A DNA stretch of 64,000 nucleotides, taken from Promethearchaeota archaeon (lineage in GTDB: Archaea > Asgardarchaeota > Lokiarchaeia > Sigyniarchaeales > SOKP01). The position numbers and the translations under genes were made by a program. Shown here in pieces: positions 52,826 through 64,000 of the stretch (within the stretch, counting starts at the first letter, position 1; the number at the start of each line of letters is the position of its first letter). Location: assembly GCA_016839585.1 (NCBI GenBank), contig JAEOTZ010000018.1, positions 64,948 to 128,947 on the forward strand, written 5' to 3'. A model generated the notes under the pieces. The model saw only the letters and a list, made by a program, of their open reading frames with translations, was not told the DNA's origin and did no database searches.

Positions 52826-53782
52826 ATGGTAAATATAATTTCAGTATGTGGATTTAACTGCAGTAAATGTCCCGCATTCAAAGATAATATCAGTGGTGAA
52901 CAAGATAGAAAAAAAGTTGATGAAGGATGGAAAAAATATCATAGAACAAAGGGTTGGGTTTATGATGATCCATACTGCCTAGGATGTTTTGCAAATAAAA
53001 TTATAGAACCATTATGGCGTAAATGTTATATTCGAGGATGTGCAATCCAAAATGAAGTAAAGAATTGTGGATATTGTGCAGATTACCTTTGTAATCGTTT
53101 ATCTTATTTAATCAATCATATGGAAAAACTTGCGAAAAGTGCGAGAGAGATAGCTAATAAGGAGGATTATAGTAAATTTGCCGAACCTTATTTAGGCAAA
53201 GAAAGATTGGATAAGATTCATAAAGATGCCATTTCCCAAAATTCAATAAAAGAAACTCCACCGGTAGTAGAGGCTGCAGATTTCCCAGCAGATTTAAACT
53301 TTCTATCAGAAATTTATTTAGAGAAGATAAATCGGGAAAGTCATGAAAGGGGATTAAAAGCACTATATGGAATTCTTAAAAATCTATTAACCTTAAAAAG
53401 TAACACTCCTGGCGAAAGAGATTACGAGAGAAAAAGAATTAAGGAACTGACAAAAATCTTATACTTTATTGGAAAAGATGGAAAAATTATTGAAGAAAAA
53501 GATAATACATATATTGAAATTTCTCTAGATTCAATAAAGAATAGTATAAAGAAGGGTAAATTCGCTATTAGAAGTCGTCTTGATAAACTTGAATCTCATG
53601 GGATAGTATTTGAGTTTACTGAAGATGATTCCAAGATAAAAATGTCTTTTTCAGAGGAGCATAAGGGATTACCTATATCTTATGTTCTAAAAGCATATAT
53701 CCAGTTTCTACTTGAAAATAATGGTGAAAGAAAAGCATATACTTTATTTTCAAATGCAGACATGAGCCAATACATGAAATAA
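52826..53782 (+). CDS. DUF3795-like Cys-rich domain protein
   Basis: CGFNCSKCP, CLGC, CYIRGC, NCGYCADYLC at the N-terminus. Confidence 0.8.
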   Translation: MVNIISVCGFNCSKCPAFKDNISGEQDRKKVDEGWKKYHRTKGWVYDDPYCLGCFANKIIEPLWRKCYIRGCAIQNEVKNCGYCADYLCNRLSYLINHMEKLAKSAREIANKEDYSKFAEPYLGKERLDKIHKDAISQNSIKETPPVVEAADFPADLNFLSEIYLEKINRESHERGLKALYGILKNLLTLKSNTPGERDYERKRIKELTKILYFIGKDGKIIEEKDNTYIEISLDSIKNSIKKGKFAIRSRLDKLESHGIVFEFTEDDSKIKMSFSEEHKGLPISYVLKAYIQFLLENNGERKAYTLFSNADMSQYMK

Positions 53783-53902
53783 TCAATACTAAAGGGATTT
53801 AATGTCATAATTCACTTTTTATTCTTACTTCTACTAAAGTTCAATTGAATATTCTATTTATTTTTTGAATAATTAGATTCTATAAATGAAATTATTTTTA
53901 AA

Positions 53903-54226
53903 GTGAAAAAAGAAATGTCAAAAATAAAAATTACTGTAGTAAAACAATTTGGTCCTGAAGATGTGCTTGGGCATGAATTTATACGAGCTAATGGGGACCC
54001 AATTACTAAATGTGGTATTAAAGAAGGGATGGAATTTATAGTAGATGAAAAAGGAGACATGTCAGAAGGTTTTTGTCATCATGCATGGTATGGATTATAT
54101 AAGAATGTGTCGATTTTGCAGTGCGGGGGTGGATTTCCTACTTGGACTGGAGAGAATATGATTTATACTGCGTGTCCAGATGGTATCCGACCTGTATGTT
54201 TCAAATTGGAACGAATTTCTGATTAA
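53903..54226 (+). CDS. TIGR04076-like small Cys protein
   Basis: KIKITVVK, C...EG.EF, GFCHHAW, CPDGIRPV.FKLER. Confidence 0.8.
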   Translation: MKKEMSKIKITVVKQFGPEDVLGHEFIRANGDPITKCGIKEGMEFIVDEKGDMSEGFCHHAWYGLYKNVSILQCGGGFPTWTGENMIYTACPDGIRPVCFKLERISD

Positions 54227-54319
54227 TTCTTTTTTATTTTTATTTTAAAAATTTGCTAATGAATTAATACAGGCAAAAATTTAATTTTTTAACTACTTTT
54301 GTTTTGAGGTATTACTTTC

Positions 54320-54997
54320 ATGGGTTTAAAGGATTGGAAATCATGGTCATTTATTTTAATAATGGTTGGTAGTCTTCAATTTATCATTTTAACACTCATC
54401 GCAATGGTCTATTATAAAGGGGGGACATACATTGACCAATCAACATCAGGATATTTGTTCTGGAATAATTTGTTTAGTGATTTAGGTAGAACTATCGCAC
54501 ACTCTGGATTGACTAATAGAATTTCATTCATCATTTTTACAATAACACTTTTAATCTGGGGTTTTTCTCATATTCCTTTTTATGTTGCGTTTTCATTTAT
54601 TTTAAGAGAAAATAAAAAACAAAAACAGCTTAGTAAGACAGGATCTATTTTAGGTGTTCTTACAGGAATTTCATATATGGGGATTGCACTTACACCATCA
54701 GATATTTTAAATGATGCCCATAATTTTTTCGTTCTTATGGCATTTTCATCTATATTTGTTAGTATTATTATATATTCTATTGTGATTTACCATAACAAAT
54801 CCTATTCTAATTTTTACTCTTATGTTCTGGTAATCTCAGCAATAATTTTAGCATTATTTTATATTTCACTGCTTCTAATGCCAGATAAGTCGATACAAAT
54901 AGAATTATTTATTCAAGTATTAGGACAGAAAATAGCGATGTATACTTTATTGATATCTGGTTTTATTCAAGGCTATGGAGCCTTGAAAAAACTGTAG
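54320..54997 (+). CDS. DUF998-like membrane protein
   Basis: Y.GG, N.FSDLG, H..F, QK; about six TMs. Confidence 0.65.
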   Translation: MGLKDWKSWSFILIMVGSLQFIILTLIAMVYYKGGTYIDQSTSGYLFWNNLFSDLGRTIAHSGLTNRISFIIFTITLLIWGFSHIPFYVAFSFILRENKKQKQLSKTGSILGVLTGISYMGIALTPSDILNDAHNFFVLMAFSSIFVSIIIYSIVIYHNKSYSNFYSYVLVISAIILALFYISLLLMPDKSIQIELFIQVLGQKIAMYTLLISGFIQGYGALKKL

Positions 54998-55136: not shown

Positions 55137-55925
55137 ATGAATAATGGGAATCAATTGTTAAATAAACTTAGAGCAGGATCTCTTCGTGGAATCATTTTTG
55201 ATTTCGATGGAACTATACTCGATGTTAGAGAACCTCTTGAAAAGTCAATAAATGAAGTCTTTACTTATTATAAGGTTGATGTTGATATGGATACTACGTT
55301 TCAAGAGATAGGCGCATTGTTAGAAACCATTCAAGGTTATCCACTCCCTAAAGTCTTATTAGAGTCTTTTGAGATATTTAAACATATTACTGCACTTGAA
55401 GGATTAACCTATTTCAAGCAATTGAGAATTGCAATCAAAACTTTCTCTAAATATTTAGAATACTCTAAAGATGCTACCTTATATCCAGGAGTAAAACCTA
55501 TATTGAAAAAATTTAAAAAATTTAGTGATCTTTATATTGTATCCCATAATAAAACAGAGACTATTATGAATCACTTAGAGAATGAAGGAATAGACAAATT
55601 CTTTAAAGGCGTGTATGGGAGTGATAAAATTCCCGTTCAGAAACCAGATCCAATGGCACTTCAACCACCTATTGAAAATTATGAAACACGAAAGAGAAAT
55701 GAATTTTTAATGATTGGCGATATGCCATCAGATATAATTGCTGGTCGAGAAGCTGGTTTTTGGACTATTGGAATTTCAAGTGGGGTAAGCAAAAAAGAGA
55801 TTCTGGCTGAACAAAGACCAGATTTATTAATTAATTCATTAGATGATTTATTAAAATTAGTTGAGAAAAAAACAATATCAGAATCGAATATTCAAAAATC
55901 TATAAAGATAAAATCAGAGGAGTAA
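55137..55925 (+). CDS. HAD-superfamily phosphatase (Gph-like)
   Basis: FDFDGT, VSH, KPDP, IGDMPSDI.AG; stop is 6 nt before the acyltransferase. Confidence 0.9.
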   Translation: MNNGNQLLNKLRAGSLRGIIFDFDGTILDVREPLEKSINEVFTYYKVDVDMDTTFQEIGALLETIQGYPLPKVLLESFEIFKHITALEGLTYFKQLRIAIKTFSKYLEYSKDATLYPGVKPILKKFKKFSDLYIVSHNKTETIMNHLENEGIDKFFKGVYGSDKIPVQKPDPMALQPPIENYETRKRNEFLMIGDMPSDIIAGREAGFWTIGISSGVSKKEILAEQRPDLLINSLDDLLKLVEKKTISESNIQKSIKIKSEE

Positions 55926-55931
55926 AAATTT

Positions 55932-57596
55932 ATGCAACTTGAAAAGAAAGGATATCAACTAGCAGAAGAGCTTGAACGAAAGAAATCCACTGAACAGAAG
56001 ATGCAAGAAGAGCTCAAGTACCAAAAACGTCATCAAGATTGGACATATAAAATTCTTAAATTTAACCCAATCGACCCTTTGAATGACCTTTATCGGTACA
56101 TCATCAAAAGGCTAGATTTGAAGAAAATTGAAGGACGACTCCAATGGTGGGCTGCGTATATTTATATAAAACAAGCTGCCCGTATGTTCTGGAACTTCAA
56201 AACGGAATATCCGAAGGGGAACATGTTTCCAGAATATGGTCCGGGCATTCTCGTCGCCAATCACGAGTCACACATCGATCCCTTCTTCTATGGGGCCGCT
56301 TGTCATCGCAGGATTCGCTACATGAGTAAGTTGGACAATTTTAAGACCCCTATAGTAAGAACACTCTTCAATAATCTTGGAGCTTTCAAAGTAGACCGTG
56401 ATAATCCCGATCGGGCATGGGAAAAAGCAAAGGAGATTATCCGAGGAGGAGAATGGGTTGGTATATTTCCTGAAGGTACTCGTAGTACTGAAGAAAATGG
56501 ATTTGCGTTAGGAGAATTCAAAACTGGTGCTGTTAGGCTGGCGATTGAAATGGATGTACCAATCGTTCCGATGGCTGTAGTTGGTTCAAGGAATGCCTTA
56601 TCTAAAGGTAAACTAGTTATGAAACCAACTCAAGTAATTGTAAGAGTAGGAGATCCAATTAATTATCATGATTATGATATTAATATGGTATCATATGAAG
56701 ATATAAGAAGGTTAACTGATGAGTTAAGAACCGTAGTCTTTGAGCTACGTGAAGGTATTTATGGGAAAAAAGAGGAAGAACTTTCAATAGGTTCACTTGA
56801 AGATGTTGAGAAAGAGCCAAAATTCAATTTTAAGACTTACTTAAAAGATGTGGGAAAGGGAGTATTACAACTCATAGATGATTCATGGTATGCTCTTTTA
56901 AAGAGTTTAGAAGCATTTGGAGTTCGCGACCAGTTTCAAAAGACGGTACAATGTTTCTCAGGAGATTTAGTTTGTAGTTGGTCTGACCTTATGATGCCGT
57001 ATAAAGTAATCGACTTTGAAAAATACATCCCACAAGAAGGTGCTGCGCTTATATGTCCAAGTCATAATTCAGAATGGGATGTACTTATACTGGCTGCAAG
57101 TATGATACATCATCCACCAAGGCGAGTTATGTACCAGATGGCAAAACAATCGCTTTTTAAAATACCACTCGTTAACGCCTGGGTAAGAAATCATCATGCA
57201 TTTCCCTTAAAACGGGGAGAACATGATGTAGATTCTTACAACTATGCAAGGAATCTTCTTGAGCAGGGGGAGGTAGTTTGTACTTATCCCGAAGGAACAA
57301 CTAATCTTGGAGGTGGTGAACTTTTAGAAGGTCACACTGGTCCCATACGGTTAGCAATAGAAACACAAGTCCCAATTATCCCAATTGGTATAACTGGGAC
57401 AGAAACTACATATCCTAAGCATGCGAAAATGCTGAAATTTTATAAGGGTCAAATATTAAAAGCAGGACCACCATTTATGGAGCATCAACAATATTGGGGT
57501 AAGCCAATGCCGGATTATGATGAGCTTAAACGATTAACTGACAACATGATGGATCAGATCCGTGATTTACTTGTATACGATGCCCCTGATACGTGA
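55932..57596 (+). CDS. Tandem two-domain PlsC/LPLAT glycerolipid acyltransferase
   Basis: Domain 1: NHESHID, FKVDR, FPEGTRS, FKTGA..VPIVP. Domain 2: SHNSEWD, FPLKR, YPEGTT, HTGP..VPIIP. Confidence 0.9.
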   Translation: MQLEKKGYQLAEELERKKSTEQKMQEELKYQKRHQDWTYKILKFNPIDPLNDLYRYIIKRLDLKKIEGRLQWWAAYIYIKQAARMFWNFKTEYPKGNMFPEYGPGILVANHESHIDPFFYGAACHRRIRYMSKLDNFKTPIVRTLFNNLGAFKVDRDNPDRAWEKAKEIIRGGEWVGIFPEGTRSTEENGFALGEFKTGAVRLAIEMDVPIVPMAVVGSRNALSKGKLVMKPTQVIVRVGDPINYHDYDINMVSYEDIRRLTDELRTVVFELREGIYGKKEEELSIGSLEDVEKEPKFNFKTYLKDVGKGVLQLIDDSWYALLKSLEAFGVRDQFQKTVQCFSGDLVCSWSDLMMPYKVIDFEKYIPQEGAALICPSHNSEWDVLILAASMIHHPPRRVMYQMAKQSLFKIPLVNAWVRNHHAFPLKRGEHDVDSYNYARNLLEQGEVVCTYPEGTTNLGGGELLEGHTGPIRLAIETQVPIIPIGITGTETTYPKHAKMLKFYKGQILKAGPPFMEHQQYWGKPMPDYDELKRLTDNMMDQIRDLLVYDAPDT

Positions 57597-57617
57597 AATT
57601 TTTGAGGATTTCTTGAA

Positions 57618-58685
57618 ATGGACCCACAGGTAGCAGAAAGTAAGAAAAAAATAAAAGTTGGAATACCAAGAGCGCTTCACTTTTATAGGTATTATCCTTT
57701 TTGGAAAAAGCTACTTGAAGAATTAGATGTAGAAATCGTATTGAGCCCTCCTACTAATAAAAAAATTGTTGAAGAAGGGGTTACTCATGGATTTGGAGAG
57801 CTATGCATCCCAGTAAAAATTTATTATGGACAAGTATTAAAATTAATCAGAGATCATCCAGATTTAGACTATCTTTTTGTTCCTCGATATGTAGCAGAAG
57901 TAAAAGAGGCTTATTTCTGTCCTAAATTTATATCACTTCCGGATATTATTAAAATCTTGCCTGGAGTGCCTAAAATTTTAAATTTTGAGGTTAATGTGAA
58001 AGAATTTCCTATTGCAACTTCAGTTATTGAACTTGGAAAAGAATTAGGTAAAACACAGGATCAATCATTAAAAGCTTATAGAGAGGCTCAAAAGTATTTT
58101 GATGAATATCACAAATTCCTAAGGCAAGGTGGTTCAGTTAATCATGCATTGCGATTAGTTCAGAGAAACATTCCTTTTAAATTACCTAAGAAGAAAAGCA
58201 AGGGAGATATAAAGTTCTTACTCTTGGGTCATGCATATAATATTTTTGATACTTTTATTAATTTAGATTTTCAAAAGAAATTAGTAGATCAAGGAGTTGA
58301 AGTTTTAACTATTGAAAATCTACCAGAATTTATTTTTAAAGAGCCAGTAATAGTGAATCCTAAAGGGGGTGGCCTACGAAATTACTGGAAACATGAAGAA
58401 GAAATTATGCAAGCAATTAGATACTTTCTTACCAAAGGGCGAGATGAAATTGATGGTGTTATTTTCCTTGTAAGTTTTGCTTGCGGACCTGATAGCCTAA
58501 TTTCAGAACTAATCATGCGGGATATGAAAGTCGTTGGACTTCCTTTTTTGGAGATTACAATGGATGAGCATAGTGGTGAAGCAGGTTTACTTACGAGAGT
58601 AGAAAGTTTTGTTGAAATGGTACGACGTAAAAAGAAGAAATTGGAGATTGATTCAAAAAAGACTACAGTTATAAAAACATTATAA
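57618..58685 (+). CDS. Stand-alone DUF2229 (acyl-CoA dehydratase activase-related, Fe-S reductase module)
   Basis: VGIPRAL, LCIPVK..YG, YFCPK, LGHAYN..D..IN, FACGPD, DEHSGEAG..TRVESF. Confidence 0.85.
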   Translation: MDPQVAESKKKIKVGIPRALHFYRYYPFWKKLLEELDVEIVLSPPTNKKIVEEGVTHGFGELCIPVKIYYGQVLKLIRDHPDLDYLFVPRYVAEVKEAYFCPKFISLPDIIKILPGVPKILNFEVNVKEFPIATSVIELGKELGKTQDQSLKAYREAQKYFDEYHKFLRQGGSVNHALRLVQRNIPFKLPKKKSKGDIKFLLLGHAYNIFDTFINLDFQKKLVDQGVEVLTIENLPEFIFKEPVIVNPKGGGLRNYWKHEEEIMQAIRYFLTKGRDEIDGVIFLVSFACGPDSLISELIMRDMKVVGLPFLEITMDEHSGEAGLLTRVESFVEMVRRKKKKLEIDSKKTTVIKTL

Positions 58686-58974
58686 ATGGATAAGATTTAT
58701 CTTTTCTCTCATTTTTTTAAATGAGTGAAATAACACTGACTTTTTTTATTAAAGTTTAACAATTTTTTTAATAATCAATATTATTTAAAAACTATATGCT
58801 GGTTTAAGTAGTTGATAATTATTAATATTTTAATGAGCTTAATGGAATAATATTTGTAATCTTATTTTTTGTTGTATAATATTTAAATAGTCATTTATAA
58901 TTCTTTTTTCTTATTTAATAAAATAAAGATTTGAATAAATAAATAGATATTTGAACATAAATGGTGAGCATTAA

Positions 58975-58993
58975 TGAGCAGATTTTCTGCTCA
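58975..58993. promoter_or_regulatory. Operator-like palindrome TGAGCAGA-TTT-TCTGCTCA
   Basis: Perfect 8-bp inverted repeat about 80 bp upstream of the PlsA-like gene; extra half-sites TGAACA (58952) and TGAGCA (58965). Confidence 0.6.
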
Positions 58994-59070
58994 AATTTGG
59001 TGAAGTGGATTTAAACAATTATTTAAGTAAATATATATCCAATTAAACTAATCATTTTAGCTGATAGGTA

Positions 59071-62028
59071 ATGTTAAACAAGAGTCTTCATAGATTGAAT
59101 ATACAAAAACCTCAATATTTTGAGGGTTTAGAAATTGGAGCTGTTTCTGTAAAATGGGTTTGTAGAACAGAAAATGGAGAAATATTAAGTGAAGTTGTAC
59201 GCCACGAAGGCTCTCCAAGAGAGAAGATAAAAAAGATTTTTGCTCGGTATAATGTAGATAATCATTCAAAAATTGTAATAACTGGTCAAGCCACCAAGAG
59301 TTTTCTTAATTTACCATACATTTCAGAAATAGAATGTCTTGAAAAGGCTTTAGCGTTCTATAATTTAAAACCGGATATTCTACTTTCACTTGGTGGAGAA
59401 ACTTTTAGCATATACCCTATGAAAAGTGGTATAATAAAAAATATTATTTCAACTTCAAAATGTGCTGCTGGTACAGGTGAATTCATTGTCCAACAACTTC
59501 AAAGAATGGGATTAACTGTTGAACAAGGAATTGAAGCCAGTATAACAGGTAATTTCACTCAATTAGCAACAAGATGTTCTGTTCATTGCAAATCTGATGC
59601 TACTCATAAACTCAATAAAGGAGAGTGTAAAAGGGAAGATATAGTAAAAACTTTAATTTATGACTTAGCAAGAAAAGTTAGTGAAATGATTGAGTCTGCA
59701 CAATGGCCTACACGATTAATTGTAATATCGGGAGGAGTTGCTTTAAATAAAATTTTTATTCAGAATTTATCTGAATTTCTAGGTGATACAGAAATAAAAT
59801 TATTACCAGAAAGTCCTTATCTCGAAGTATTTGGAGCATCATTATTCGCATCTGAGTTGCAAGAATCCCCCTTCCTCCACGATGACTGGTTTAAATCATC
59901 GAAAGTTGAGTTTCCAATCCTCAGACCACTTAAAGAAGCAGAACCTCTTCTGGATTACCGAGTTAACACAGAATCTAAAACAAAAATAAAACTTGGAGAA
60001 AAATATATACTTAGTATAGATGCGGGTTCTACTACTACTAAAGCTGTACTATTTAATGTTTCTGATGATTCAATAGGTGCAAGTGTTTATTTAAGAACTT
60101 TGGGCAATCCTGTTTTAGCTACTAAACAATGTATCAATGAACTCATGAAACAGGTAGGTAATAATACTATAAAAGTAATTCAATGTGGGGTAACAGGTTC
60201 TGCTAGAGAAATGGTATCCGTTTATTTAGATAATTGTCGAAGTTTTAATGAGATACTAACACATGCAAGAGCGGCTACCAACGAGCTTCCAAATGTAGAT
60301 ACTGTATTTGAAATTGGTGGGCAGGATTCAAAATTTATCTCATTTTTAAAAGGCGTACCAATTGATTATGCGATGAATGAAGGATGCTCTGCTGGGACTG
60401 GCAGTTTTCTGGAGGAATCTGCATCAGTAGACATGGGTATAGCTGTAGAGGAAATTAGTGATATAGCGACAAAAAGTACTCACCCAATAGCATTTGGTGA
60501 ACGGTGTGCTGCTTTTATCAATACTGATTTAAGAAATGCTCTTCAACAAGGAGCAAATCCTGATAATGTGGTAGCTGGCTTGGTTTATTCAATTGCAGAT
60601 AATTATATTTCACGTATTGTTGGATCACGTCAAATAGGAGAGAATCTTCTATTCCTTGGAGGAGTTGCTCTAAATAAATCAGTTGCTTTAGCTATAGCTG
60701 CTCGTTCACATCAAAAAGTTGTAGTACCGGCGCATCCTGAACTTATGGGAGCCGTGGGTACAGCTCTTATGACACGTGATCTTTTACAAAATGATATTAT
60801 ATCTGAAACAAATTACATGCTCAAGAAACTTACGAGAGGAGAAATACAAATTAAAAATACTTTTAGATGTAAGGCATGTGAAAATAATTGTGAAATTCAA
60901 AGAATTTCAATAAGAGGGAAAATTTATCCCTTTGGAGGATTATGCTCAAAATATAAATTATTACGCCAAAAAGGTACCAAAGTAAAAGAAGGTCAAGATC
61001 TTGTAGAATTAAGGAATAAAATGATGATTGATGAATATAGAAGTCGATCTTTAAAAAATCCTCGTGGCACAATAGGATTACCTATGGCATTAACTTCTCA
61101 TGTTCTTTTCCCTTTATACACAAAATTTATCAATGAGCTTGGTTATGATGTCGTATTATCAAATCCTTCAAAAATTGGTAATACCAAAACGAAAGCACCT
61201 ATATGTTATCCTTGTGAATTAGTTCATGGAGCGGTAAATGATCTTTTAAATCGCGATGTTGATTACATTTTCTTACCTCATGTCATTGAAATGGAAATTT
61301 CAAGAGGTTTTATTCATGGTTATACGTGTCCTTCTACAACAACTATTCCAGACATCATCCGCGCAGCCTTTGAGAATGTAAGCGATAAAATATTATCACC
61401 TCATATTGGTCTCTCAGAAGACCTTATTGATACAACTTTAACGGAGTTTGGAAGAATTGCTTGTTTGTTAGGATTAGAAAATAAAGAGGGTATTAATGCG
61501 GGATTGATAGCTATATCTCGTTATAAGATGTTCAGAGAAAGATATTACGAATTTGGTAGAAGAAAATTAAAGGATCTCTTGAACAAACCATCAGTAATTA
61601 TCGCTGGAAGACCTTATGTTATTTATCCTGCAGATGTTAACATAGCACTCCCTCGCAAAATAGTTAGCAGAGGATATAATGCTATTCCCTCTGATTTATT
61701 ACCATTTTTAAATAATGAAGCAACACACACAAGAAATGTATGGAGCTTTACTCAAGAGATCAATAATGCCATTCAATATGTAAAAAAGTATCCCAATTTA
61801 TACCTCTGTTTTGTTTCTTGCTTTTCATGTGGTCCTGATGGAACTATGTATCATCACTTTCGTCAACAACTTGAGGGGCACACGTTTTGTTATCTTGAAA
61901 TAGATTCTCATACAGCCCACGCTGGTTTTGAAACGAGAGTAGGCGCTTTTTTAGATATTATTGAAGAACGCCATCGTAATGCAAAGAAAAATGTGAAAAG
62001 TTTATTAAATCAAGGTATAACTATCTAA
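59071..62028 (+). CDS. PlsA/Ger-like protein: two BcrAD/BadFG activase domains plus DUF2229
   Basis: Act1: KCAAGTG, RCSVHC. Act2: IDAGSTTTK, EIGGQDSK, MNEGCSAGTG, RCAAF. Linker: CKACENNC..GGLC. Red1: CYPC, YTCP, GRPY, FSCGPD, EIDSH. Confidence 0.85.
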   Translation: MLNKSLHRLNIQKPQYFEGLEIGAVSVKWVCRTENGEILSEVVRHEGSPREKIKKIFARYNVDNHSKIVITGQATKSFLNLPYISEIECLEKALAFYNLKPDILLSLGGETFSIYPMKSGIIKNIISTSKCAAGTGEFIVQQLQRMGLTVEQGIEASITGNFTQLATRCSVHCKSDATHKLNKGECKREDIVKTLIYDLARKVSEMIESAQWPTRLIVISGGVALNKIFIQNLSEFLGDTEIKLLPESPYLEVFGASLFASELQESPFLHDDWFKSSKVEFPILRPLKEAEPLLDYRVNTESKTKIKLGEKYILSIDAGSTTTKAVLFNVSDDSIGASVYLRTLGNPVLATKQCINELMKQVGNNTIKVIQCGVTGSAREMVSVYLDNCRSFNEILTHARAATNELPNVDTVFEIGGQDSKFISFLKGVPIDYAMNEGCSAGTGSFLEESASVDMGIAVEEISDIATKSTHPIAFGERCAAFINTDLRNALQQGANPDNVVAGLVYSIADNYISRIVGSRQIGENLLFLGGVALNKSVALAIAARSHQKVVVPAHPELMGAVGTALMTRDLLQNDIISETNYMLKKLTRGEIQIKNTFRCKACENNCEIQRISIRGKIYPFGGLCSKYKLLRQKGTKVKEGQDLVELRNKMMIDEYRSRSLKNPRGTIGLPMALTSHVLFPLYTKFINELGYDVVLSNPSKIGNTKTKAPICYPCELVHGAVNDLLNRDVDYIFLPHVIEMEISRGFIHGYTCPSTTTIPDIIRAAFENVSDKILSPHIGLSEDLIDTTLTEFGRIACLLGLENKEGINAGLIAISRYKMFRERYYEFGRRKLKDLLNKPSVIIAGRPYVIYPADVNIALPRKIVSRGYNAIPSDLLPFLNNEATHTRNVWSFTQEINNAIQYVKKYPNLYLCFVSCFSCGPDGTMYHHFRQQLEGHTFCYLEIDSHTAHAGFETRVGAFLDIIEERHRNAKKNVKSLLNQGITI

Positions 62029-62031
62029 AAA

Positions 62032-63456
62032 ATGACCGAAATAGAACAATCAAAAAATAAAGAATTATTTAAGACAAATAAAGTCAAACAGGCTCGATTT
62101 TCTGATGATTATAAATACATCATTGATAGCGAGGGTCAGAAAGTTGAACTTGACGATTCTAGGATTGTATTTGTAGATCCTGAACCCCGAAATTCCTATG
62201 GAAGACGGCTTGTAATAAATTTATTCAAAAAATATAACCGTAACTTTAGGATTAGTAAAGAGACTGATGCATCTATTTTACAATATTCAAAAAAAATATG
62301 CTCTGGAAGAGAATGTCTTGCAAGTGTTGCTATTGCAGGGGCAGTCTTAAAGGATATACATGAATATAGAGATACAAATGAAATCACTATCTATCGGACT
62401 CCAATAGATCAACACGGTCCATGCCAGAATGGGGCATGGCCAGTTCTTTGGGAGACATTTGCGAAAAGACTAAATATGAAAAATGCAATTTTTTGCGCTT
62501 TTCCTAAATATTCTAACAATTATTTAGGGTTGAATCGCGATTTAATAGCATGGGAAAATTTAAATTTTGTCATAGGACAATATCTTATCGAAGCAAGAAA
62601 TGCTTTGCAATGCGTTGCTGAAAAAAAAAATATAGCTTTGGATAAATTTGAAGAATTAACAAGTGATTTTATTGATAATGTAAAAGAAGGAAAGAAAACA
62701 TTGAACACCGGTTTAGTAAAATGGGCAAAAGAAGTTGCGCAAATACCTCTCAAAGCTAAAATTAAAGAAATCCCCAAAGTATTAATTTTTGGAGGATTAA
62801 ATTTAATGTTTGATCATTATCCTATAGAAGATTTTTTTCTTGAAAGGGGAATTATTACGAAAGTTGTAGATATAGTTGAATCAATGAGCCTAATTTTAGC
62901 CGAAAGTACTATAAGATATGTATTCAAAAAAGGATTTATCACTCCAAAAGAGCAATTTAATGAACAACTACTCGATCCTACTGATTTAGATGAAAATGAT
63001 AGAAAAGAAGCTCTAAGAGCAAAAAGAAGTAGAAATGCTTTAAAATTCTTAGATTCACAATGTAAAATTTTCAGAAAAATTATGGGAAAATCAGGATTAT
63101 TGTTTGATTCATATATAGATTTTATTGATCTCCTTAATGAAGGAAATAAATATGTCTCTTCAAATAGTCTTAGTGAAACTCCAGTAATAACTGGGAGATT
63201 TTTACATTCAATTAAAGAAGGTATTTACGATGGCTTAATTAATTTAGGGACATTTAATTGTCAACCTGCAATGAACTCTCAGGCTATTATTCGTCCATTA
63301 GCTAATAAGTGCGATATTCCATACGCAGCAATAGATTGTGAAGGACCGTGGATATCAACAAATCAACGCAGACTTCTTGAAACAATTGCTGTGCAAGCTA
63401 AAAGATTACGCAAAAAGAAGAATGAGAAAACAATACAGGTATATTCACAAGTCTAA
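62032..63456 (+). CDS. PlsR-like Fe-S reductase/dehydratase-type subunit
   Basis: CSGRECL, GPCQNG.W, G.FNCQP; starts 3 nt after the PlsA-like stop. Confidence 0.75.
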   Translation: MTEIEQSKNKELFKTNKVKQARFSDDYKYIIDSEGQKVELDDSRIVFVDPEPRNSYGRRLVINLFKKYNRNFRISKETDASILQYSKKICSGRECLASVAIAGAVLKDIHEYRDTNEITIYRTPIDQHGPCQNGAWPVLWETFAKRLNMKNAIFCAFPKYSNNYLGLNRDLIAWENLNFVIGQYLIEARNALQCVAEKKNIALDKFEELTSDFIDNVKEGKKTLNTGLVKWAKEVAQIPLKAKIKEIPKVLIFGGLNLMFDHYPIEDFFLERGIITKVVDIVESMSLILAESTIRYVFKKGFITPKEQFNEQLLDPTDLDENDRKEALRAKRSRNALKFLDSQCKIFRKIMGKSGLLFDSYIDFIDLLNEGNKYVSSNSLSETPVITGRFLHSIKEGIYDGLINLGTFNCQPAMNSQAIIRPLANKCDIPYAAIDCEGPWISTNQRRLLETIAVQAKRLRKKKNEKTIQVYSQV

Positions 63457-63732
63457 AAGTAACCTCATGTAAATTAAACCTTATCATTTGATTTAATAAA
63501 TTATAACTATTAATTCTACAAGCAGCATTCTAATATTTTTATTTTCTTCAATTTTATTAATTAAAACTGAGATTTTTAATAAAAGGCTTCATACTTTTGA
63601 TAATTTGTTTATAATGGGTAATTTTTTATTGTTTGCTTTGTTATTTAAACAAAAGTGTATTTAAGTAAACGTCGATTATAATCATTTAAGATTCAAGGAG
63701 TTCACATCTCTAATCCCAACCCTGTGTTTGAC

Positions 63733-64000
63733 ATGAGCGAAGAAAAACTAGCAATACATAAAAGAAAAGTAGAAGTGATCTCTGAAATGGTTAGAAATGC
63801 GTACGATAACACGAAACCAGGAGAATATTTCTCTCTAAAAAAGGCGAGCGTTTCCCATATGGCTCCACAGCCAGATAACCCGATGTATAGCGACAAGCCG
63901 ATAGATGTGAAGTCACTTACAGACATTATTGAGATAAACACGGATACAAGGATGTGTATTGCAGAAGCAGGGGTTACATTTGTTAGGCTTGCAAGAGAAA
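63733..64000 (+). CDS. 3'-truncated FAD-binding oxidoreductase (VAO/PCMH family, DHCR24-like N-terminus); not in the ORF track
   Basis: My translation: MSEEKLAIHKRKVEVISEMVR...KKASVSHMAP...PIDVKSLTDIIEINTDTRMCIAEAGVTFVRLARE, open to the window end. Confidence 0.7.
   Translation, partial: MSEEKLAIHKRKVEVISEMVRNAYDNTKPGEYFSLKKASVSHMAPQPDNPMYSDKPIDVKSLTDIIEINTDTRMCIAEAGVTFVRLARE

Follow-up and report, generated by a model that had tools for sequence, protein, structure and literature searches.

The 64,000-nucleotide stretch of DNA analysed here (the window; contig JAEOTZ010000018.1 of assembly GCA_016839585.1, from a Promethearchaeota archaeon) ends in a gene cluster in which a phosphatase of the haloacid dehalogenase (HAD) superfamily and a tandem PlsC-type acyltransferase (PlsC2) are followed by candidate ATP-driven radical enzymes. 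The latter are a stand-alone DUF2229 protein (Red0), an Act1-Act2-Red1 protein (BBD) with its partner subunit (Red2), and the beginning of an FAD-DUF2229 fusion (FADRed). The unit that is conserved across the archaeon's family is HAD-PlsC2-Red0 together with a second DUF2229-like protein (D394) and a stand-alone activase (Act), and not the BBD-Red2 pair. Conversion of acyl esters to ethers is the best-supported mechanism for the cluster and is assigned a probability of about 0.45. The initial annotation of this DNA, which read it as a route from acyl-glycerolipids to plasmalogens or alkyl ethers, is partly supported.

The conserved unit

The distribution of the cluster was followed in a phylum sample of 200 Asgard genomes, 40 of which belong to the family of the window. 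PlsC2 is present in 37 of these 40 genomes and essentially nowhere else in the sample, Red0 orthologues (67–93% identical) are present in 36, and Red0 adjoins PlsC2 wherever the coordinates of both were listed. The HAD gene lies upstream of PlsC2 in 11 of the 11 family neighbourhoods that reach far enough upstream, and the fetched neighbourhoods show that the order HAD-PlsC2-Red0-D394-Act is conserved in four genera. BBD-Red2 is missing from 34 of the 40 family genomes and is hence no integral part of this unit, and it was not found in same-genus genomes of 99–100% completeness. In this organism the pair is one of two accessory cassettes between Red0 and D394, the other being the FAD-DUF2229 fusion. 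One genome of genus g4 (L316) features FADRed, an activase and the protein D441 between Red0 and D394. Another g4 genome (L317) and the window additionally carry BBD-Red2 between Red0 and FADRed, and in G193, from the same genus as the window's archaeon, Red0 is followed directly by FADRed without BBD-Red2.

The first protein of the unit is matched by HAD_2 (E 3.7e-25), and its (F)DFDGT sequence corresponds to the DxDxT nucleophile motif, which places it in the HAD superfamily. Its NCBIfam matches are generic and phosphoglycolate-phosphatase-like, all below the equivalog cut-offs. PlsC2 is matched twice by PF01553 (E 3.4e-57) and scores 160.9 bits with TIGR00530, for which the cut-off is 103. 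Both of its domains carry the motifs of PlsC and 1-acyl-sn-glycerol-3-phosphate acyltransferases, as HESHID/FPEGTR and HNSEWD/YPEGTT, and these are kept in 21 orthologues; prediction of transmembrane (TM) segments gave none. In the ESM Atlas, proteins of this tandem architecture make up a separate cluster with archaeal members only, and the clusters nearest to it consist of single-domain bacterial proteins of ~287 amino acids (aa). A predicted PlsC2-Red0 complex scored 0.20 against a mark of 0.32, which speaks neither for nor against such a complex. The genome, which is 99% complete, holds three PF01553 domains, all inside the cluster.

Red0 is matched in Pfam by DUF2229 (E 8.6e-46) and HGD-D (E 1.3e-6), its residues Cys63, Cys101 and Cys289 are invariant, also in homologues of 38–45% identity, and it is predicted to be the alpha-like subunit of an HgdAB-type radical enzyme. 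Red0 shares 29% identity with BBD's Red1 domain. D394 is distantly paralogous to Red0 and has a C-terminal cluster region in common with Red2. The stand-alone activase, a BcrAD protein, aligns to BBD residues 295–637 with 36% identity and ends in a CX2CX3C...C motif like the linker that follows Act2 in BBD. Because of these sequence relations between Red0 and Red1, between D394 and Red2, and between the activase and BBD, Act, Red0 and D394 are a three-polypeptide, "disassembled" counterpart of BBD and Red2 and hence of PlsA/Ger.

In this organism D394 and the activase open a second contig (C82), where they are followed by a PlsC-like ORF (open reading frame). An element of ~100 nt centred on TTTATAATGGGTAA, located upstream of FADRed, is also found at about positions 45–145 of C82, upstream of D394, with ~80% identity, and its 16-mer core has 3 occurrences in the genome and no more. 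Because the element is shared between the end of the window's contig and C82, the latter is very probably the far end of the window's cluster. The element may have arisen by duplication of a promoter or regulatory site or be left over from the insertion of a cassette, and it could also be why the assembly breaks here. The PlsC-like ORF on C82 (2659–3351, 230 aa), the third in the cluster, is matched by PF01553 (E 2e-7) and is probably non-catalytic since the HX4D and PEGT motifs are missing. A weak PlsC-like match beside Act was also seen in L310 and L311.

The BBD-Red2 pair

Pfam matches BBD with two BcrAD_BadFG domains (E 1.5e-53) and with DUF2229 at residues 667–876 (E 2.4e-37), and the resulting order, Act1-Act2 (2x PF01869) followed by Red1 (PF09989), is that of PlsA/PlsR and Ger. 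A "BBD" domain core has been reported to be conserved in all alkyl-ether producers (PMC13159169). The activase part of the protein matches structures of HadI, HgdC and MbdQ, with 4eht, 1hux, 9gai and 7yyl among the PDB matches. The ligands expected for iron-sulfur (Fe-S) clusters are all present, namely the activase cysteine pairs, the CX2CX3C...C linker and three cysteines each in Red1 and Red2, and the alignments show that these cysteine columns are invariant across clades A and B of the superfamily, which are described below. The Act1-Act2-Red1 plus Red2 architecture of the PlsA/PlsR-Ger family, as proposed in the initial annotation, is therefore borne out by an intact domain order and cysteine set.

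The Pfam/NCBIfam scan gave no family match for Red2. The protein is 45% identical to residues 989–1430, the C-terminal third, of a fused 1444-aa bacterial homologue, and Cys95, Cys131 and Cys410 are invariant in 24 clade-A and two clade-B sequences. A confident structural model, with a pLDDT of 88, has as its top 19 PDB matches only subunits of the double-cubane protein, the benzoyl-CoA reductases BzdNO/MbdON and the dehydratase HadBC. Red2 is accordingly an Fe-S subunit with the predicted catalytic-subunit fold of the benzoyl-CoA reductase/2-hydroxyacyl-CoA dehydratase (BCR/HAD) enzymes, and the three cysteines, the match to the fused homologue and the predicted fold agree with the 474-aa Fe-S partner that had been proposed. 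Wherever a locus reaches beyond the BBD gene, Red2 adjoins BBD or is fused to it, as expected of a second reductase module. The Pfam architecture of the Red2 region was tried as a discriminator between the clades and was uninformative, with zero matches in clade A and in clade B.

Clades of the PlsA/Ger superfamily

Two clades, A and B, separate with a support of 100 in a tree built from 159 BBD regions, and a separate IQ-TREE run (LG+G4, 32 rows, rooted on clade B) agrees. Clade B features Thermotogae, many Bacillota, Desulfobacterota and FCB bacteria as well as isolated Methanosarcinales and Nanoarchaeota sequences, and its proteins are almost always fused, with ~1,430–1,480 aa. The verified Ger and PlsA enzymes were placed in the clades by lineage, and on this basis clade B contains the Ger lineages. 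BBD falls in clade A. The 985-aa/474-aa pair is thus not a member of the clade of the verified enzymes, and it is 36–39% identical to the Ger-lineage proteins.

Genome surveys covered the lineages of the known enzymes. A homologue is present in 48 of 121 Thermotogota genomes, in all cases at most 39% identical to BBD and almost always as a single fused protein. In the Desulfatibacillum family (27 of 27 genomes), a fused ~1,460-aa protein with 37–38% identity is the best match, and further paralogues there are 28–33% identical. Among 300 genomes of the class Clostridia, 149 contain a homologue, and about nine of these are of clade B. The prevailing type makes up a third clade, C, with 26–31% identity over the full length, which is either fused (~1,430 aa) or split into proteins of 972–978 aa and 424–435 aa. 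The size of the split form is compatible with the published 4.2-kb plsA-plsR fragment, and clade C probably contains PlsA. The clade-A type was not found in the 121 Thermotogota genomes, in the 27 Desulfatibacillum-family genomes or among the matches listed for the 300 Clostridia.

All 38 Loki-type Asgard sequences form one clade (support 100) inside clade A, nested several nodes deep among mostly Desulfobacterota sequences, and their sister is a metagenome-assembled genome (MAG) of the Eubacteriales; the IQ-TREE run gives the same placement. The simplest reading of this tree is that BBD-Red2 was acquired by a single transfer from bacteria to Asgard archaea. A second tree was made of the Act2-linker-Red1 region and rooted with concatenated stand-alone activase and Red0-type proteins. 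In this tree A, B and a Heimdall-type branch group together (97) and C lies outside, so that clade A would descend from an ancestor bracketed by lipid-ester reductases if the rooting holds. Such an ancestry supports a related function for clade A without proving it.

Other members of the superfamily were seen in archaea and bacteria. The Asgard families f5, f2, f14, f24, f25 and f27 carry a different, fused homologue of ~1,400 aa that is 37–41% identical and has no linkage to PlsC2; this form, also carried by a Heimdallarchaeota-labelled MAG (L149), is a long branch near the base of clade A. Fused genes of clade B (Ger-type) are present in MAGs of Methanosarcinales, Nanoarchaeota and Woesearchaeota (L186, L165 and L236). 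L186 and L165, the two that were placed in the tree, branch among bacterial sequences, which suggests separate transfers into archaea. Single bacterial genomes can hold up to five large paralogues of the Act-Act-DUF2229 type, as in a Desulfosudis oleivorans MAG (G005) and Sporomusa ovata (G004).

Proposed function

In the proposed mechanism the PlsC domains would put acyl esters from acyl-CoA (acyl-coenzyme A) on a glycerol-phosphate-type backbone, and the HAD enzyme would then remove the phosphate. The activase, driven by ATP, would hand a low-potential electron to a two-subunit, 3-Cys [4Fe-4S] enzyme, and one or more of the radical modules would, like PlsA/PlsR and Ger, turn the ester into an alkenyl or alkyl ether by reducing its carbonyl via a ketyl radical. 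Position, substrate or product may vary among the paralogous modules, and the products would be minor or conditional lipids beside the normal archaeal isoprenoid ethers. The chemistry is coherent because ester-forming enzymes adjoin enzymes whose characterised relatives reduce ester carbonyls (PMC13159169, PMC9702350). The mechanism is supported by the location of the genome's only PF01553 domains in the cluster, by the co-occurrence of PlsC2 and Red0, and by the full PlsA/Ger architecture of BBD and Red2.

A more far-reaching proposal is that one Lokiarchaeia-type family holds a dedicated, vertically conserved operon for non-isoprenoid glycerolipids, in which the two-headed acyltransferase makes diacyl lipids that are then converted to ethers by up to three modules (Red0/D394/Act, FADRed/D441/Act and BBD/Red2). 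This proposal is tentative and on balance doubtful. If it were true, fatty-acid-derived ether lipids of the bacterial or eukaryotic type would be made beside archaeol as well as glycerol dialkyl glycerol tetraethers (GDGTs), the modules may act at different positions or redox states (alkenyl vs alkyl), and Red0/D394/Act would represent a widespread kind of ester reductase that had so far gone unrecognised.

Several observations weigh against the conversion of esters to ethers. The clade-A pair is present in 6 of the 40 family genomes, and the 34 without it mostly keep PlsC2-Red0. The plsC synteny across Asgard genomes that the initial annotation looked to is accordingly conserved through Red0, but not through the BBD pair, and a search for PlsC near the bacterial clade-A loci found none at any of them. 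Clade A has no characterised member. At least five bacterial genomes hold both a clade-A and a clade-B protein (four Desulfobacterota MAGs and the Desulfosudis oleivorans MAG), and the last of these has five paralogues, of which one is of type A (59%), one of type B (37%) and three are 28–29% identical; this coexistence and the five paralogues in one genome argue for differing functions. In the second tree, C and the outgroup may attract each other as long branches, according to a warning from the tree program, and both the three-clade root and the position of PlsA in C are inferences. The Red0/D394/activase module is widespread elsewhere without any PlsC, and therefore homology does not fix its substrate. 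Neither acyl carrier protein (ACP) nor PlsY was found in the genome, which points to acyl-CoA as the PlsC donor, and searches for GpsA and glycerol-1-phosphate (G1P) dehydrogenase gave only weak generic Rossmann and Fe-ADH matches, with no clear GpsA. Ether cleavage of the lipids of the cultured Ca. P. syntrophicum (MK-D1) gave phytane and biphytanes only (PMC7015854). Lastly, two of the closest bacterial relatives of BBD (L035/L322 and L036; 66–67% identical) lie between a family-III CoA-transferase and acyl-CoA dehydrogenases, with a glycyl-radical enzyme also flanking the 67%-identical homologue, and another bacterial relative is followed by an enoyl-CoA hydratase. Such flanks are the classical context of 2-hydroxyacyl-CoA dehydratases.

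This context favours CoA-thioester chemistry, in which BBD-Red2, and perhaps other modules, would be ATP-dependent dehydratases or reductases of acyl-CoA or 2-hydroxyacyl-CoA. They would serve fermentation or the catabolism of compounds derived from fatty acids or hydrocarbons, as HgdABC, HadBC-HadI and benzoyl-CoA reductase do, and the proximity of PlsC would reflect shared acyl-CoA pools or acyl transfer to a non-lipid acceptor. The nearest solved folds of Red2 all act on CoA esters or small molecules, and Asgard archaea are amino-acid fermenters (PMC7015854). However, the CoA context was found in few, closely related loci out of 40 bacterial ones, and no family occurs in more than 3 of the 137 ORFs that neighbour bacterial clade-A genes (CoA_transf_3 and Acyl-CoA_dh in 2 each, HGD-D in 3). 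A clade-B control also gave few lipid neighbours, with CDP-alcohol phosphatidyltransferase in 3 of 78 loci, and the bacterial neighbourhoods are too heterogeneous to decide function. Additionally, no CoA-transferase or acyl-CoA dehydrogenase was found among the annotated genes of the Asgard cluster, which houses the genome's only acyltransferases, and the full-length architecture and cysteine set match the lipid-acting Ger lineages rather than the small, separate HgdA, HgdB and HgdC proteins. CoA-thioester chemistry is for these reasons considered unlikely.

The PlsC family serves many acceptors, and the NCBIfam matches of PlsC2 include Aas-type and lyso-ornithine-lipid acyltransferases. Esters might thus be handled without the formation of ethers, with PlsC acylating some acceptor (in lyso-lipid remodelling, or to give an acylated archaeal lipid or a storage or signalling ester) and the radical modules dehydrating, reducing or deoxygenating the acyl chain or head group while leaving the ester bond intact. 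The presence of three paralogous radical modules, one of them fused to an FAD domain, suggests chemistry beyond a single ester-to-ether step, and the MK-D1 lipids, in which n-alkyl ethers were absent, agree with such a role. On the other hand, no characterised Act-Act-DUF2229 member acts in this way, and in the closest relatives that have been characterised it is the ester bond itself that is converted (PMC13159169), as in the preferred acyl-ester to ether mechanism. Ester handling of this kind is judged quite improbable.

Native Asgard origin

The cluster is at home in Asgard genomes. BBD orthologues with 64–90% identity are present in many MAGs labelled as Promethearchaeota, Lokiarchaeota, Thor-, Hel- and Hermodarchaeota, and the sequences that bear them include long contigs and one closed chromosome of 3.34 Mb. 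Different studies have yielded independent Asgard MAGs, more than 10 in number, with the same arrangement, which the closed chromosome also shows. Close relatives keep the gene order including the upstream DUF3795 and DUF998 genes, and in L083 an Arf/Ras-family GTPase gene adjoins the cluster. The genome of the window is 3.45 Mb in size, with 29% GC and 99% completeness, and has a clear GGGPS. The GC content at third codon positions (GC3) is 0.188 for BBD and 0.194 for Red2, which matches the mean of 0.203 ± 0.028 for the long ORFs of the window. A bacterial contaminant or chimeric assembly join, which the 62–67% identity of the bacterial relatives of BBD-Red2 and the unusual composition of PlsC2 might suggest and which the initial annotation had named as a way to overturn its reading, is effectively excluded by the recurring gene order, the single Asgard clade, the GC3 values and the neighbouring GTPase gene.

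Gene order and further features of the window's end

The six co-oriented genes, with the domains and spacing given in the initial annotation, were confirmed by the ORF listing, and the Pfam/NCBIfam scan supports every domain assignment in the cluster except that of Red2 (Table 1).

Table 1. Features at the end of the window, in order of position
Feature	Position	Strand	Basis and spacing
HAD-IA family phosphatase (262 aa)	55137-55925	+	HAD_2, DFDGT motif; first gene of the conserved core; then 6-nt gap
PlsC2, tandem PlsC-type acyltransferase (554 aa, two catalytic domains)	55932-57596	+	PF01553 x2; then 21-nt gap
Red0, stand-alone DUF2229 protein with HGD-D tail (355 aa)	57618-58685	+	Pfam; then 385-nt gap
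AT-rich 385-nt spacer, upstream boundary of the BBD-Red2 cassette	58686-59070		read from the sequence
BBD, Act1-Act2-Red1 protein (985 aa), clade-A member of the PlsA/Ger superfamily	59071-62028	+	2x BcrAD_BadFG and DUF2229; then 3-nt gap
Red2, partner subunit of BBD (474 aa)	62032-63456	+	predicted BCR/HAD catalytic-subunit fold, no Pfam family; then 276-nt gap
~100-nt element upstream of FADRed, centred on TTTATAATGGGTAA	63552-63651	+	shares ~80% identity with the sequence that precedes D394 on contig C82
FADRed, N-terminal 89 residues of a FAD_binding_4-DUF2229-HGD-D fusion	63733-64000	+	ATG at 63733; ORF truncated by the contig end

The spacer between Red0 and BBD features an oligo-T run after the Red0 stop codon and, ~35 nt ahead of the ATG of BBD, a TATA-like stretch rich in A/T; these may act as terminator and promoter, and the spacer is kept in L082, a 90%-identical relative. 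An Rfam scan of the cluster region gave zero matches, and a search for repeats on the flanks of the BBD-Red2 cassette found only AT-rich matches at chance level. PlsC2 is a compositional outlier with a GC content of 0.39 and a GC3 of 0.31, compared with a mean GC3 of 0.20 ± 0.03 for the ORFs of the window. This composition is odd given that the gene is conserved throughout the family, and high-expression codon bias or strong constraint are possible causes.

The flavoprotein of the initial annotation is present as the start of an FAD-type gene, but only as an 89-residue fragment because the contig (C90) ends exactly at the window's end. The fragment is 91% identical to residues 1–89 of an 813-aa protein in the relative L083 (L083:14764-17205), where the full-length FADRed consists of FAD_binding_4, DUF2229 and HGD-D. 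We know of no description of this FAD-DUF2229/HGD-D domain combination. The FAD domain is of the generic VAO/PCMH type, and its best PDB matches are cytokinin dehydrogenases. An AGPS-like identity was considered and rejected, as the AGPS match is marginal (E 9e-4) and far below those of the cytokinin dehydrogenases. Downstream of FADRed come an activase of its own and the DUF2229-like protein D441 as partner. It is a matter of speculation that the FAD domain could supply a two-electron step, e.g., from alkenyl to alkyl.

Upstream of the cluster (window 52826-54997) lie co-oriented genes for a Cys-rich DUF3795 protein, a TIGR04076-family protein and a DUF998 membrane protein, which are outside the family-wide core. 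In L082 the upstream region has annotated DUF3795 and DUF998 genes with two small ORFs between them that have no recorded Pfam match, and in G193 a DUF998 gene is also located upstream of HAD.

Significance

It is an open problem how an archaeal host with isoprenoid ether membranes yielded eukaryotes whose membranes are fatty-acyl. Ger homologues have been published for Lokiarchaeota, including Ca. P. syntrophicum, and for Heimdallarchaeota (PMC13159169), and Manoharan et al. in 2019, after Villanueva et al. in 2017, described homologues of PlsC from a few Lokiarchaeota (PMC6737245). The claim is therefore less new than the initial annotation implied, but no published description of a linkage between PlsC and DUF2229 was found in the papers searched, and the linkage appears to be unreported. 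What is new is that the scattered Ger and PlsC matches are shown as one organised, testable locus, that its family-conserved part is an operon of an acyltransferase, a phosphatase and a three-component radical enzyme and not a Ger-like protein, and that the Ger-like pair was imported from bacteria, is optional, and belongs to a clade without a characterised member.

Surveys of "Ger homologues" that use E-values merge functionally distinct clades. The superfamily has at least three deep paralogous clades, so "Ger" matches without a clade assignment cannot be read as a capacity for ether lipids, and caution is needed in environmental surveys that infer producers of ether lipids or branched GDGTs (brGDGTs) from Ger homology.

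Comparison with known systems

Ger proteins from T. maritima (Tmari_0479) and D. alkenivorans (SHJ90043) were verified by Sahonero-Canavesi et al. in 2022 by anaerobic expression in E. coli (PMC13159169). Like Ger, BBD-Red2 features two BcrAD_BadFG domains, a DUF2229 Red1, a Red2 module and the conserved cluster-binding cysteines, it comes from an organism of anaerobic lifestyle, and it matches Thermotogota and Desulfatibacillum-family proteins over the full length (E about 1e-180 to 1e-196). Unlike Ger, to which its identity is 36–39%, it belongs to clade A, whose members are found together with those of the Ger-type clade B in single bacterial genomes, and it is split over two genes, whereas clade B is almost always fused. 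The two-gene split into ~1,000 aa and ~400–470 aa, the domain order and the superfamily are shared with PlsA/PlsR of C. perfringens (CPE1194/1195), as far as the work of Jackson et al. from 2021 is related in two later papers (PMC12838417, PMC9702350). In contrast to PlsA/PlsR, for which a place in clade C is probable, BBD lies apart from this dominant Clostridia clade, which is 26–31% identical to it and outside A and B.

The dehydratase and reductase systems HgdAB/HgdC, HadBC/HadI, the benzoyl-CoA reductases and the double-cubane protein with DCCP-R also combine an ATP-driven activase with a two-subunit, 3-Cys Fe-S module. The Red2 model matches 7yyl, 8s02, 9g87 and 3o3m, and Red0, D394 and Act have the same three-polypeptide layout as these systems. 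However, the sequence identity of Red2 to them is ~10–13%, the core subunits match DUF2229 strongly and HGD-D weakly at the C-terminus, and the Asgard cluster is linked to acyltransferases and a phosphatase, without a CoA-transferase. Like the bacterial PlsC, a 1-acyl-sn-glycerol-3-phosphate acyltransferase, PlsC2 has the HX4D and PEGTR motifs and scores above the TIGR00530 cut-off, and unlike it, PlsC2 is a single 554-aa chain that houses two catalytic domains and for which no TM helix is predicted.

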